Below, in pieces: positions 8,595-15,736 of a DNA stretch of 64,000 nt (its first letter is position 1; every line of letters begins with the position of its first letter). The stretch is from NCBI GenBank assembly GCA_965248535.1, contig CBDFJR010000002.1, positions 1,984,001 to 2,048,000 on the forward strand. The letters are read 5' to 3'. The notes below the pieces were generated by a model that saw only the letters and a list, made by a program, of their open reading frames with translations, made no database searches and was not told where the DNA came from. Source of the stretch: Phormidesmis sp. (GTDB taxonomy: Bacteria; Cyanobacteriota; Cyanobacteriia; Leptolyngbyales; Leptolyngbyaceae). The translations under genes and the position numbers were made by a program.

Positions 8595-8672
8595 TGCATA
8601 ACCCGATCGTGCCATCCCTATTCAGAGAGTGTAAGAGGTTCACACCTCACAAACACACTCACCTAAAGGATC
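8595..8672 (+). promoter_or_regulatory. Conserved promoter/leader motif, copy 1
   Basis: TGCATAA(8595)-N14-CCCTAT(8616)-N8-TGTAAG(8630), then hairpin GAGGT-tcac-ACCTC and ACCTAAAGGA (SD). Confidence 0.65.
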
Positions 8673-8678
8673 ACTACA

Positions 8679-13600: not shown

Positions 13601-15736
13601 GCGCAGATGACCGCGATCGTGATCGGAGCGCTAGGCATCGCAGCATCGGGATTAGCAGGCTTTTCCTATTGGCAGCAGCGCAATGCCCAACTTCGCACGA
13701 TCGAAGCCTTAGCAGCTTCTTCTGAGGCGCTGTTATCGTCTAATCATCAGCTAGAAGCCTTGATAGCAGGAGTCAAAGCAGGACAGCAGATCAAAAAAAT
13801 GGCTCAGGTCTGGAATCCGATCGCGATGACTTCTCGCATGGGAACAATTGCTACTCTCCAACAGGCGCTCGATCTCACTCAAGAACTCAACCGATTAGAA
13901 AAACACAGTCAAAAAGTCAATGATATTAATATAAATAATAATGGAACCTTAATCGCTACGGTCAGTGACGATAAAACAATTCAGCTATGGAAAAATGACG
14001 GCACTTGGATTAGAGAAATAAAAACTCAGGAGCGCCTCAACGCCGTTACATTTAGTCCGGTTAATAACACGTTAGCAACCGCCAGCGCCGACAAAACCAT
14101 CAAACTGTGGAATCAAGACGGAACCCTCTTAAAAACCTTAACCGGACATCAAGACTGGACAACCGATGTGCAGTTTAGCCCCGATGGTCAAAGGTTAGCC
14201 AGCGCCAGTCGAGACGGCACGATTAAACTTTGGCGGCTCGATCGCAACACCCCCATGCAAACATTTCAAGGTCACAAAGGCTGGGTAAACAGCATTCGCT
14301 TTAGCCCTGATGGCAAAACTTTAGTGTCTGCTGGGGAAGACGGCACCATCAAATTTTGGCCAACTGACGGCAAAAATAGCCGATCGCTGAAGAGTTTTGT
14401 AGGACACCGCGATCGGATCACTGCCCTCAGCTTCAGTCCCGATGGCACCCTGATCGCATCTGCCAGCGCCGATAAAACCGCAAAACTTTGGTCACTCACG
14501 GGGCAGTTAGTGCAAACCTTTGCCGGGCACACCGATCAGGTAAATGATAGCCGCTTTCATCCCCAGGGCAAAACGCTAGCGACGGCGGGGGCTGATGGCA
14601 CCATCAAACTTTGGAGCTTAAATGGAGAACTGCTGCACACGATTAGCGCCTCGCGCACCACCGAAGCAGCCGCGGCCCACTCAGCCGAGATTACCCGCGT
14701 TCGATTTAGCCCAGATGGAGCCGTTTTGATGACTGCCAGCGCCGACAAAACCGCCAGACTGTGGCGAGTGCCCGACCTCACGCCACCTAATAGTGGGCTG
14801 TCGATCGCCAGTCTTAGCCCCGACGGTCAGACGATCGCCGCCGTCAATGACAAAACCATTCAGCTTTGGCGACGAAATCACGGAACCATCCAACCCTTAG
14901 CGATCGCGTTTAAGGGACACACCGCCCCGATTACAGCCTTAGAATTCAGTCCCGATGGCACCCTGATTGCGTCTGCCAGCACCGACAAAACCATCAAACT
15001 TTGGAACGTGACCACCGGATCGCAACTCAGAACCTTAACCGGACATCGCGATCGCGTCACCGCTCTCAGCTTTCGCCCCGATGGCAAACTTCTCGCATCC
15101 GGCAGCGCCGACAAAACCATCAAACTCTGGAACGTGTCCACCGGATCGCAACTCAGAACCTTAACCGGGCCCACCGACGAAATTACCGCCGTGCGCTTTA
15201 GCCCCGATGGGCGACTTCTCGCATCGGGCGGCTATGACAACACCCTCAGACTTTGGGTAGGTGACAGCCCTGCGTCGATTGTCGTTGGACGGCATCAACT
15301 CGCGATCGCGGCCATCGCCTTTAGCCCCGACGGTCACTCGATCGCGTCTGGCAGTTGGGACAACACCCTCAAACTTTGGACGCTTCACGATGCCACACCC
15401 AGCCCAGAAGTCACTCTCAGCCAGACCTTTAGCGGACACAGTGATGCAGTAACCAGCCTCAGCTTTAGCTCAGATAGTCAAATGCTTGCCTCAGGCAGCG
15501 CCGACACGACCCTAAAGCTTTGGGATGTCAAAACGGGTTTGCTCAAAACCCTCAGCGGCAGCCGCGATCGCCCTCAAAGTGTCAACTTCAGCGCAGACGG
15601 CAAAACGCTAGTCAGCAGCAGCGATCGTCAAGGCGTGGCAGTGTGGAACCTGGATTTAGACGACCTCTTAAAGCAAGGCTGCGATCGACTGCAACCCTAT
15701 TTGCAAAGCCACCCCGATCGTGAGGTGTGCCCTTAA
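10625..15736 (+). CDS. Caspase-like (peptidase C14)-pseudocaspase-STAND NTPase-TM-WD40 protein
   Basis: YFSGHG and LDACHSG dyad; CPYMGLRAF; Walker A GASGSGKSS; Walker B VIDQFEELF; GDLPLLEFVL; EVAHEILIR; TM AIVIGALGIAASGLAGFSYW; about 14 WD40 repeats. Confidence 0.93.
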   Translation: MPRAISRPTLPLETGKAKLWILLVGVNHYQDTHLPSLHYPALDCQGLADALTEATQEFPQREIRTHHDFGAAVPDLASVRQTLQQMVTDAQPQDTVLVYFSGHGVLDDRTQQAVLCLADTQKDNLLETGLGVAELLELLGQCAARQQVIWLDACHSGSMTLRSAKGASIELPNPTAQMMNVLGQRAAQSQGFYALLSCDRAQQSWEFPELGHGVFTYFLMRGLRGEAADAQGTIEADGLYKYVYHQTLQYIDKTNQQLRLINQQKRSRGNTQLQTEYPMQTPKRIVEGIGELILGVRSTTNSPQNPRQALVIAGLPSQQTTLSLSKVLHQAGGFDLDYYPQSGKDWSAVREAIQTCLRSAEPHPSLAPTALLYLRGRIEETAAGDSWLILGETRIARSWLRQALRHSQMTQQIIVLDCPGATTLSEWIEELQLGNDQGQCLIAAASPTTESEKFAQILLETLKVGDRPVGLPAAGWIAQLQIALAGELPLHVWLSGAQGVIEVLPGRVGSRRPDTAGFDLGFCPYMGLRAFSEEDSSYFYGREGLTRQLIQAVSHQACLAVVGASGSGKSSIVQAGLIAQLRQGQQVPGSQQWWIGHMRPGDRPLEALARRLVDPGSDSEQSRQQQQIEGILHQGAEGFVYWLRSRPEPVVMLVIDQFEELFTLAATDDRQQFLALILGAVNYASDRFKLILTLRADFISPCLEVPELATILQRSSVLVPPYLTENDYRDVILRPAEQVGLQVESGLVEVLLQELDHSAGDLPLLEFVLEQLWQQRRSGVLTLHAYQQQIGGLRGALERKAEAVYDSLDPDAQACARWIFLSLTQLGEGTEDTRRRVSKSDLVVKKYPAALVDRTLQALAIAKLIVIGVDEPNAHSKGAPQTSDFRLDASATDVSIEVAHEILIRYWSTLRWWLEENRNRLRSQRQIEQAALHWKQSDRQSDFLLRGIRLAQAEELYVNYTDELPTDTQRFIEACFKERQREQTEVKRRLRRAQMTAIVIGALGIAASGLAGFSYWQQRNAQLRTIEALAASSEALLSSNHQLEALIAGVKAGQQIKKMAQVWNPIAMTSRMGTIATLQQALDLTQELNRLEKHSQKVNDININNNGTLIATVSDDKTIQLWKNDGTWIREIKTQERLNAVTFSPVNNTLATASADKTIKLWNQDGTLLKTLTGHQDWTTDVQFSPDGQRLASASRDGTIKLWRLDRNTPMQTFQGHKGWVNSIRFSPDGKTLVSAGEDGTIKFWPTDGKNSRSLKSFVGHRDRITALSFSPDGTLIASASADKTAKLWSLTGQLVQTFAGHTDQVNDSRFHPQGKTLATAGADGTIKLWSLNGELLHTISASRTTEAAAAHSAEITRVRFSPDGAVLMTASADKTARLWRVPDLTPPNSGLSIASLSPDGQTIAAVNDKTIQLWRRNHGTIQPLAIAFKGHTAPITALEFSPDGTLIASASTDKTIKLWNVTTGSQLRTLTGHRDRVTALSFRPDGKLLASGSADKTIKLWNVSTGSQLRTLTGPTDEITAVRFSPDGRLLASGGYDNTLRLWVGDSPASIVVGRHQLAIAAIAFSPDGHSIASGSWDNTLKLWTLHDATPSPEVTLSQTFSGHSDAVTSLSFSSDSQMLASGSADTTLKLWDVKTGLLKTLSGSRDRPQSVNFSADGKTLVSSSDRQGVAVWNLDLDDLLKQGCDRLQPYLQSHPDREVCP
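14982..15168 (+). repeat. Near-identical tandem WD40-coding repeat (126-nt period)
   Basis: 14982-15042 vs 15108-15168: 59 of 61 nt identical by manual alignment. Confidence 0.9.

Follow-up and report, generated by a model that had tools for sequence, protein, structure and literature searches.

A membrane-anchored caspase-STAND-WD40 protein of Phormidesmis sp. as candidate receptor protease in a proposed DUF1822-controlled sigma factor circuit

What a predicted membrane caspase might cut, and what ties it to two neighbouring genes for exported proteins, is the question raised by a locus of Phormidesmis sp. (assembly GCA_965248535.1, contig CBDFJR010000002.1). The window, i.e. the whole stretch of 64,000 nucleotides that was analysed, is C2:1984001-2048000 of genome G000 (5.03 Mb) and carries three genes on the + strand: gene 1 (8679-9365, 228 aa), gene 2 (9675-10595, 306 aa) and gene 3 (10625-15736, 1703 aa). 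A preliminary description, made from the letters of the window alone, had placed these three co-oriented genes between tldD and exopolysaccharide (EPS) genes, and both the open reading frames (ORFs) and the flanking genes agree with this (divergent tldD-like gene with its end at 8478; convergent O-antigen-ligase (Wzy_C) gene starting 21 nt past gene 3). It had taken them for a self-contained, undescribed system in which the secreted proteins 1 and 2 serve a WD40 receptor, gene 3. The analysis below favours, by a modest degree, gene 3 as a receptor protease that frees a sigma factor encoded elsewhere in the genome, with genes 1 and 2 as outputs.

Both gene 1 and the gene 2-3 unit are preceded by an element, TGCATAA-N15-CCTA, that is read here as a promoter. 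For gene 1 it lies at 8595-8635 (+), with TGCATAA at 8595-8601 (putative -35 box), 15 nt, CCTA at 8617-8620 (putative -10 box) and a conserved TGTA near the likely start site; for gene 2-3 it lies at 9599-9639 (+), with TGCATAA at 9599-9605, 15 nt, and CCTA at 9621-9624. The exactly spaced motif described earlier was recovered as identity at 23/23 chosen positions in exact register, the next best site in the 5.0-Mb genome reaching 18/23; because the motif was defined from those two sites this match is not independent, and conservation was used as the independent test. TGCATAA-N15-CCTA was found in 37/37 upstream regions (16 gene-2 and 21 gene-1 regions, including 2 from G000 itself; 2 more loci were left out, the gene start being off the contig), 59-131 nt before the start codon and whether the genes are linked or not, and both boxes are invariant in 35/35 distinct orthologous sites, so that the proposed co-regulation of genes 1 and 2 is upheld as far as sequence can tell. 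G000 contains four exact sites at spacer 15 and 0-3 at the other spacers between 8 and 24; the third of them is flanked by a gene for an exported 205-aa protein and, facing the other way, a 394-aa sigma gene, and a one-mismatch site lies upstream of a FecR-like and beta-barrel gene pair. Counted genome-wide over 90 genomes of the order, which are kin, the pattern gave 123 sites against 36 for a reversed control in the 16 core genomes that hold genes 1, 2 and 3 (a count that takes in the training sites, in genomes that are kin), and 134 against 122 in the other 74. These counts were made with exact two-box patterns, since a weight matrix built from 35 sites had over-fitted the spacer and recovered nothing in G000 beyond its own two training sites. 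Most motif-bearing genes of relatives code for proteins with signal-peptide-like N-termini; nine were scanned, of which six had no Pfam family and the rest VWD, subtilase and papain domains, the papain-domain gene being a doubtful target as its start is 620 nt from the site. No death effector was seen among the motif-bearing genes examined. Twelve near-identical sequences in G036:C1 also match the pattern and are probably a repeated element.

The arrangement of the three genes was then considered across genomes. Genes 1 and 2 are separated by 309 nt and genes 2 and 3 by 29 nt. An intrinsic-terminator-like hairpin with a T-run lies 3' of gene 1 at 9413-9447 (+; -19 kcal/mol, z -3.87, 0/200 shuffles), and RNA folding found no structure in the 29-nt gap, as expected from the earlier statement that gene 3 follows gene 2 with no terminator between them. 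A scan for consensus sigma-70 promoters and terminators returned nothing that exceeded shuffles and overlooked the 9413-9447 hairpin; Rfam gave no match on 8400-10700 at E 0.1, hence no known RNA family there. Strong gene-2 orthologues are present in 18/90 genomes, with gene 3 directly next in 17; in the exception, G004, gene 2 is truncated at 162 aa and followed by unrelated genes (L183:9380-14301, a region that suggests a chimeric contig or an insertion). Among seven metagenome gene-2 loci the caspase is next in four, the rest being one locus at a contig end and two distant homologues. Gene 1 occurs in 18/90 genomes, nearly the gene-2 set, and adjoins gene 2 in only 3 of the 18; in the near-closed genomes G038 and G082 it lies more than 1 Mb away. 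The claimed neighbourhood linkage thus stood for genes 2 and 3 and fell for gene 1, and with gene 1 so distant and provided with its own terminator the self-contained three-gene system was given up. Distant gene-2 homologues (37-46% identity) have no caspase downstream (0/9 loci) and a gene-1-like ORF upstream (likeness judged by eye, one being a profile match). Because such pairs exist without a caspase, genes 1 and 2 are more likely outputs than ligands; to judge from these neighbourhoods, gene 1-gene 2 is an old pair, gene 2-gene 3 is a pair of this clade, and there is no fixed three-gene unit.

The sigma gene next to the third site (G000:C2:1302960-1304144; L119:3961-5145; 394 aa) encodes an ECF-like (extracytoplasmic function) sigma-70 factor (TIGR02937, 110.5 bits against a cut-off of 42.9; in Pfam, Sigma70_r4 above and Sigma70_r2 below cut-off), and a DUF1822 gene lies behind it. 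Its 16 best matches (at least 493 bits; next 431) fall in the very 16/90 genomes that hold genes 1, 2 and 3, and in a tree of 32 rows those 16 together with the long-branched G013 form one clade (support 99/97). Orthologous sigma loci have a divergent site in 16/16 cases, which in 14 is an exact YGCATAA-N15-CCTA, in one has a 16-nt spacer and in one a single mismatch; CCTA is found at 0/14 paralogous loci, which use TGCATA-N16-CGTA. The region 4.2 helix is similar across paralogues, and region 2.4 has Thr in 17/17 clade members versus Asn in 15/15 others; a changed region 2.4 with a conserved 4.2 fits the two boxes as -10 and -35 elements, but amounts to a single evolutionary change. That TGCATAA-N15-CCTA is the promoter of this sigma is, on these correlative comparisons, held with high confidence. 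Eight sites in G013 (L227-L233) stand before different genes, including one for a subtilase/PPC protein: the same promoter with a different regulon. A further site, TGCATAT-N15-CCTA, lies inside the 3' end of the sigma gene (L119:3961-4080), 135 nt before the DUF1822 start, and has the CCTA form in 11/16 orthologues; it is a possible internal promoter for DUF1822 and was not taken as evidence because it overlaps conserved codons and paralogues have similar sites.

The FecR-like gene is a putative member of the same regulon. It was found in 19/90 genomes, namely the 16 core genomes plus G004, G026 and G060, which is the union of the gene-1 and gene-2 sets. Where it stands apart from the sigma operon it has its own motif in 10/16 loci with room for one, and 4 more have a variant -10; within the sigma operon it has none (0/2). 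A single 12-kb cluster of G071 contains the motif, gene 2 and gene 3 and, convergent with them, the beta-barrel, FecR-like, DUF1822 and sigma genes; in G082 gene 1 lies behind these four. In G060 (99% complete) gene 1 has a stop and a gene-2 remnant stands behind an intact motif; gene 3, sigma and DUF1822 were not found in that genome. A broken gene-3-like gene, convergent with a FecR gene, was seen at L164 (G087).

For the DUF1822 protein a role as anti-sigma was considered. The complex of the intact sigma and DUF1822 proteins of G065 was modelled with a score of 0.84 (best of three controls 0.00; the mark for such scores is reached by 116/157 solved and 2/215 mismatched pairs), with at least 88% contact agreement between runs and a partner pLDDT of at least 87. 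The modelled interface joins sigma residues 133-145 and 327-346, the ends of the promoter-reading regions 2 and 4, to DUF1822 residues 1-202. The model supports binding of DUF1822 to this sigma, and DUF1822 is very probably its anti-sigma; a sequence search of the PDB gave no DUF1822 relative. Past the binding part, the linker has an Arg in 30/30 distinct sequences (several of them close kin), followed by Gly or Ser, with variable neighbours. An invariant Arg in such a place suits an Arg-specific protease.

Gene 3 is a candidate for that protease. Its C14 caspase domain (10682-11362, +, aa 20-228) matches PF00656 at 61.8 bits against a cut-off of 21.4, and the dyad His103/Cys154 as well as Asp43 and Asp152 are invariant in 9/9 aligned proteins. 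A second, degenerate caspase-like domain (11546-12124, +, aa ~308-500; weak match to NF047832, E 0.00096, and alignment), absent from the preliminary description, has neither His nor Cys at the dyad positions. It is followed by an nSTAND1 NTPase (12194-13447, +, aa 524-941; PF20703, E 1.9e-124) with Walker A GASGSGKS and Walker B region VIDQFEE, motifs that are retained in 7/7 full-length orthologues, by a single transmembrane (TM) helix predicted from hydropathy (13607-13663, +, aa 995-1013; basic residues on the N-terminal side), and by WD40 repeats (13883-15733, +; 12 Pfam stretches, probably two propellers) that are free of Cys and end in a conserved Cys pair (1686, 1702). Pfam and hydropathy thus agree with the order given earlier, caspase and STAND before one TM helix and WD40 after it, and this order of C14, P-loop NTPase, one TM helix and WD40 is that of a transmembrane orthocaspase. 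The helix is the most hydrophobic window in 7/7 orthologues, with 4-6 K/R before and 2-3 after it; the orthologues hold 13-15 Cys on its N-terminal side and, in the C-terminal ~680 aa, only the terminal pair (one more in 2/7), whereas three TM-less WD40 proteins of G000 taken as control (from a repeat-pattern search) hold 9-11 Cys in their repeats. Because of this K/R bias, the Cys distribution and the Cys-rich controls, the extracytoplasmic WD40 domain proposed earlier is highly probable, its predicted location being the periplasm. Among the 17 gene-2-linked copies all (17/17) have a post-Cys loop SG(G/S)M(T/S)L..R-(G/S/A/T), with an L-R-S site in gene 3 itself, and the loop is shortened or altered in 5/5 orphan gene-3 copies. 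C14 enzymes outside metazoa cleave after Arg/Lys, according to the available part of PMC5756287. Gene 3 scored 135.4 bits for the domain alone and 149.2 with the second domain against the EACC1-type caspase model NF047832 (cut-off 140), and 20.8 bits against the CHAT model, below its cut-off of 24, Peptidase_C14 being far better. PADLOC, run on six queries without the WD40 part, returned one generic caspase model and no families for the other five. An assignment of gene 3 as an antiviral STAND (Avs) was rejected, as there was no catalogued defence model beyond the generic caspase and the sensor lies behind a TM helix.

The putative outputs were characterized from their sequences and models. 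Genes 1 and 2 both encode a hydrophobic N-terminal segment ending in A-x-A, taken as a signal peptide by eye and hydropathy and not by a signal-peptide predictor, and Gly-rich segments (gene 1, aa 89-109; gene 2, aa ~147-188), in line with their earlier reading as secreted. Protein 1 is Ser/Asn-rich, with conserved Cys 44 and 155 around a low-complexity stretch, a central GGGG-F-x-x-x-G-I-x-G and a C-terminal helix; its structure model was unusable (pLDDT 41), and a long beta-hairpin is suggested by the Cys pair, which flanks a Ser-rich stretch whose tip is hydrophobic and Gly-rich. No Pfam match over cut-off was obtained for any of 25 gene-1 members and no NCBIfam family; the Atlas held unnamed cyanobacterial clusters only, and a profile search gave 83 proteins, of which 13 were inspected and none was named. 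The closest named relatives of protein 2 (91-92% identity) are labelled Phormidesmis. In its structure model (pLDDT 70 overall, hairpin 55-60), aa ~40-220 have the VirB10/TrbI C-terminal fold, a beta-barrel with a Gly-rich helical hairpin at aa 139-184, and aa 240-305 form a three-helix domain. Foldseek matched the model to 6gyb_C (E 5.8e-9) and VIA gave Z 12.2 (rmsd 5.6, 172 residues aligned; next unrelated fold Z 6.6), the top seven VIA rows all being type IV secretion core chains. The Gly-rich segment of gene 2 would accordingly be the helical hairpin of a VirB10-like fold. In type IV secretion complexes the helical hairpin of VirB10-type domains forms the outer-membrane pore. The modelled domain shares the fold of the VirB10/TrbI/CagY/DotG outer-membrane core domain, hairpin included, at 9-16% identity, and differs from VirB10 in a signal peptide that runs straight into the domain without a long linker and in an additional three-helix domain at the C-terminus. 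Type IV secretion genes, including virB7/virB9 partners, were absent from the neighbouring ORFs, with no genome-wide virB search made; Pfam gave weak Gly-zipper matches only, and weak homologues of the domain occur in 78/90 genomes. By its model, gene 2 has a VirB10 outer-membrane fold, and a shared fold shows no function.

Taken together, genes 1 and 2-3 would belong to the regulon of the unlinked ECF-like sigma, which would be inactive while held by cytoplasmic DUF1822. A periplasmic signal would bind the WD40 propellers of inner-membrane gene 3, whose topology is predicted from sequence; by analogy with other STAND proteins and orthocaspases, nSTAND1 would then oligomerise and activate the C14 domain, with probable self-cleavage at the Arg after the catalytic Cys. 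Gene 3 would cut DUF1822 after its linker Arg (A-R-G/S; Arg268 in G065), with later degradation of the N-terminal fragment still bound to sigma; uncut, DUF1822 would, in the complex model, mask the end of sigma region 2.4 and the region 4.2 helix. Free sigma would transcribe from the TGCATAA-N15-CCTA sites, its targets being gene 1, gene 2-3 (positive feedback), the FecR-like and beta-barrel pair, the gene for an exported protein that faces away from sigma, and a few genes for further exported proteins. The output would be an envelope or surface programme, with gene 2 probably a VirB10-like outer-membrane ring and gene 1 probably an oligomeric beta-hairpin protein. That gene 3 is the protease that cuts DUF1822 is held with somewhat better than even confidence.

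A number of observations weigh against this circuit. Gene 3 adjoins the sigma gene in 1/16 core genomes and is unlinked in 15, and the co-occurrence counts are not independent because the genomes are kin. G013 has the clade sigma and 8 motif sites and gave no match for gene 1, 2, 3 or the FecR-like gene; in G026 (93% complete) genes 2-3 and the FecR-like gene are present and the clade sigma was not found, and G004 (84% complete) is without sigma and gene 3. Intact gene-3 orthologues without gene 2 or the clade sigma occur in G039, G040, G043, G047 and G049, with zero sigma-family matches at E 1e-20 in G040 and G047; four measured orphan copies have dN/dS 0.11-0.16 versus 0.074-0.11 in regulon genomes and are still under purifying selection. 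The gene-3 orthologue of G082 (L155:5014-10207) is broken by a frameshift towards the end of the STAND region, and the DUF1822 gene of G000 itself (L119:2786-3911) is split by a one-base frameshift near L119:3349. The extra base is missing from the contigs of 3/4 public runs covering the place, for which reason an assembly error or a strain-specific change is assumed; if the frameshift is real, the circuit is defective in this strain. The N-terminal piece of the split gene keeps most of the modelled sigma-binding surface and is without the Arg linker. Within gene 3, what we take to be the specificity-pocket Cys of the metacaspase motif is Pro40. Absence of the pocket Cys may reduce activity, as PMC5756287 cautions in the part available. 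Finally, two canonical sigma-like/DUF1822/CHAT-CHASE2 loci are present in G000:C5 (L236, L238), and since CHAT enzymes also cleave after Arg (HetF, in the accessible part of PMC9457339), the Arg site is no pointer to gene 3 in particular.

These points leave a real, clearly smaller chance that promoter, sigma and anti-sigma are right and gene 3 is merely another output with a different substrate (itself or another protein), DUF1822 being cut by a CHAT protease elsewhere or freed without proteolysis. Orphan copies kept under purifying selection without the sigma clade, G013 with sigma and sites without gene 3, and the two CHAT-CHASE2/DUF1822 loci of G000 would all suit such an account, as would the published neighbourhoods that couple sigma/DUF1822 to EACC2-caspases (PMC8195603 section 9). 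It is harder to square with seven widely fetched loci in which no CHAT or other caspase gene lies behind the clade DUF1822, save gene 3 in G071, with the joint loss in G060, and with the loss of the post-Cys loop in the orphan copies. It also has to reckon with the recurrence of the twin-caspase module beside paralogous sigma/DUF1822 pairs: in 6/6 loci (picked because their coordinates already showed closeness) a paralogous twin-caspase protein is no more than about 6 kb from such a pair. A full twin-caspase match was found in 28 genomes, 26 of them with a sigma of this family (overall 54/90).

It is unlikely that the three genes form a unit of their own, with proteins 1 and 2 as WD40 ligands and a caspase that leads to cell death or self/non-self rejection. 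Gene 1 is unlinked in 15/18 genomes, no caspase lies behind the distant gene-1/gene-2 pairs (9/9 loci), the motif links the genes to an unlinked sigma, and a cytoplasmic caspase cannot reach proteins 1 and 2 because both are exported; the orthologues are 57-95% identical, and show no sign of allelic hypervariation of the kind expected for kin recognition. The adjacency of genes 2 and 3 in 17/18 genomes and 4/7 metagenome loci and the equally patchy distribution of genes 1 and 2 would speak for it, and the gene 2 fold and gene 1 hairpin motif could form pores. The caspase is also similar to the EACC1-associated type (135.4 bits by itself against a cut-off of 140), but an EACC1-like gene is lacking: the candidate EACC1-caspase two-gene death module was rejected, as the gene upstream of the caspase is 306 aa long, exported and of VirB10 fold, not a small single-TM EACC1, and no EACC1 match was found among 24 aligned gene-2 members in Pfam at E 0.5, a database that we take to hold an EACC1 model. 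EACC1 is treated in 10.1101/2025.11.14.688446 and PMC7159879, as far as the available parts of both go. That an ordinary transcription factor binds the motif as its operator, or that another sigma uses it as promoter, with the co-occurrence due to a horizontally inherited island later scattered, is very improbable, since the clustering in G071 and G082 and the labels shared by kin are outweighed by two non-palindromic boxes at a fixed 15-nt spacing that always point to the gene, a -10-like box that varies with the sigma paralogue (CCTA vs CGTA), a FecR-like operon with its own site only when apart from the sigma operon, and sites retained after more than 1 Mb of separation.

The proposed circuit was compared with known systems. 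Transmembrane orthocaspases of cyanobacteria that carry AAA_16 and an extracellular WD40 are on record in the accessible part of PMC7475262 (Ava_0039, Ava_3079, GEI7407_1667), with the domain order and proposed topology of gene 3, and the architecture CASPASE+CASPASE+nSTAND1+BetaPropeller is listed as KPQ33209.1 in the consulted rows of PMC8195603 supplement file 1, so that 'undescribed' was too strong a word for the protein. Those orthocaspase papers, in the parts available, take programmed cell death for granted and do not name a substrate, whereas a sigma/anti-sigma pair, a promoter and a regulon are here tied to gene 3. ECF sigma and DUF1822 genes beside EACC2-caspases were reported by Kaur et al. 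2021 (PMC8195603 section 9), who proposed transcription as the final step; that section does not give the promoter, the anti-sigma role or the cleavage site. Such systems share with the gene 3 circuit a caspase-fold sensor protease, an ECF-like sigma and DUF1822, and differ in that gene 3 combines an active with a degenerate C14 and a STAND switch and, in 15/16 genomes, would work in trans; gene 3 has no N-terminal EACC2 domain because C14 starts at residue 20 and leaves no room (no EACC2 model was searched). In the type III CRISPR trios CalpL-CalpT-CalpS and TPR-CHAT(Csx29)-Csx30-CASP-sigma, an oligomerisation-activated protease cuts a two-domain cytoplasmic anti-sigma (10.1101/2024.05.08.593097 and 10.1101/2023.06.23.546230, available parts), and cleavage of CalpT leaves a sigma-bound fragment that needs degradation before sigma release (10.1101/2024.05.08.593097, same part). 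The gene 3 circuit, unlike these, has no CRISPR link or cyclic nucleotide sensor and a trigger predicted to be periplasmic; sequence homology was not shown.

The analogy with HetF, PatU3 and HetZ drawn earlier holds in its logic. HetF of Anabaena PCC 7120 cuts the inhibitor PatU3 at R117|S118 (PMC9457339, accessible part); it, too, is a membrane protease, its caspase-fold domain lying in the cytoplasm and its repeats in the periplasm, and the inhibitor sequesters a regulator of -35-box (DIF1) promoters (PMC9457339 and PMC7377430, accessible parts). HetF is a CHAT protease without STAND, gene 3 a C14 protease with it. The HetZ model NF037963 is over cut-off at G000:C2:229082 and not at this sigma; hhalign detected no homology between this sigma and HetZ (probability 0.4%) or, from shallow alignments of 9 and 5 rows, between DUF1822 and PatU (0.2%). 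By eye, PatU-like proteins have an A-R-S/G linker resembling that of DUF1822, more fully P-(A/V)-R-(S/G) ahead of a C-terminal beta domain as in DUF1822; at L201 (G000:C2:227582-231679) a patU-like gene lies behind a hetZ orthologue over the NCBIfam cut-off. A pattern back-translated from the published PatU3 cleavage site occurred in 8/351 genomes, apparently by chance. In DdvA-DdvS of Myxococcus xanthus (PMC11506125, available part) the release of an ECF sigma across the inner membrane is likewise linked to a caspase-fold domain, but this CHAT domain lies in the periplasm and belongs to the anti-sigma itself, a transmembrane protein. The circuit is judged real and conserved and would work like CalpL-CalpT-CalpS or HetF-PatU3-HetZ, being a member of neither. 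This promoter, DUF1822 as anti-sigma, and a STAND-type membrane caspase tied to DUF1822 were not described in the literature searched, subscription journals excluded; the PMC8195603 supplements were searched by term, and further rows may list this neighbourhood.

Other loci were noted along the way. At L152, L153, L154, L239, L240 and L241 the twin-caspase protein has 815-877 aa and no STAND or TM; a Tll0287-HAMP gene, a phosphonate-binding-like periplasmic protein, sigma and DUF1822 are also present, often next to several small exported Asn/Gln/Ser-rich proteins, and the promoters are TGCATA-N16-CGTA. A third G000:C5 DUF1822 gene (C5:2354186-2354926) lies near genes resembling phage-tail baseplate genes by eye. 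In the window itself, 3513-4232 (-) encodes an exported 239-aa protein with no Pfam match at E 0.1 and the C-terminus IPTPALLPGLIG..LRKRK, which we take to resemble a PEP-CTERM-type sorting signal, and 17286-17732 (-) is a Cys-rich 148-aa ORF of no Pfam family between Wzy_C and polysaccharide export genes.

Cyanobacterial orthocaspases are usually discussed as cell-death enzymes. A natural substrate for the membrane type is not named in the available parts of PMC7475262 and PMC8283722. The present analysis provides, for a membrane orthocaspase, DUF1822 as candidate substrate, its linker Arg as candidate site, a defined promoter as read-out and a small regulon, and assigns, by modelling, a VirB10-like fold to a cyanobacterial exported protein family outside type IV secretion. 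A wider reading, doubtful as one joint claim, would see a family of insulated trans-envelope channels in filamentous cyanobacteria, in which a STAND-gated membrane caspase would act like a death receptor and cut DUF1822 at the conserved Arg to free sigma, with a common -35 and a private -10 for each paralogue; here the beta-barrel and FecR-like proteins would relay an outside cue to the WD40 domain, and the output would be a VirB10-like outer-membrane ring (gene 2), independent of a secretion system, that exports or anchors the gene 1 beta-hairpin protein, i.e. an undescribed export or contact apparatus. If the gene 3 circuit is true, the protease/anti-sigma/sigma logic of type III CRISPR and HetF would reach a periplasm-sensing STAND receptor, proteases long suspected of a part in cell death would gain a concrete signalling job, and the choice between death and signalling would become testable.

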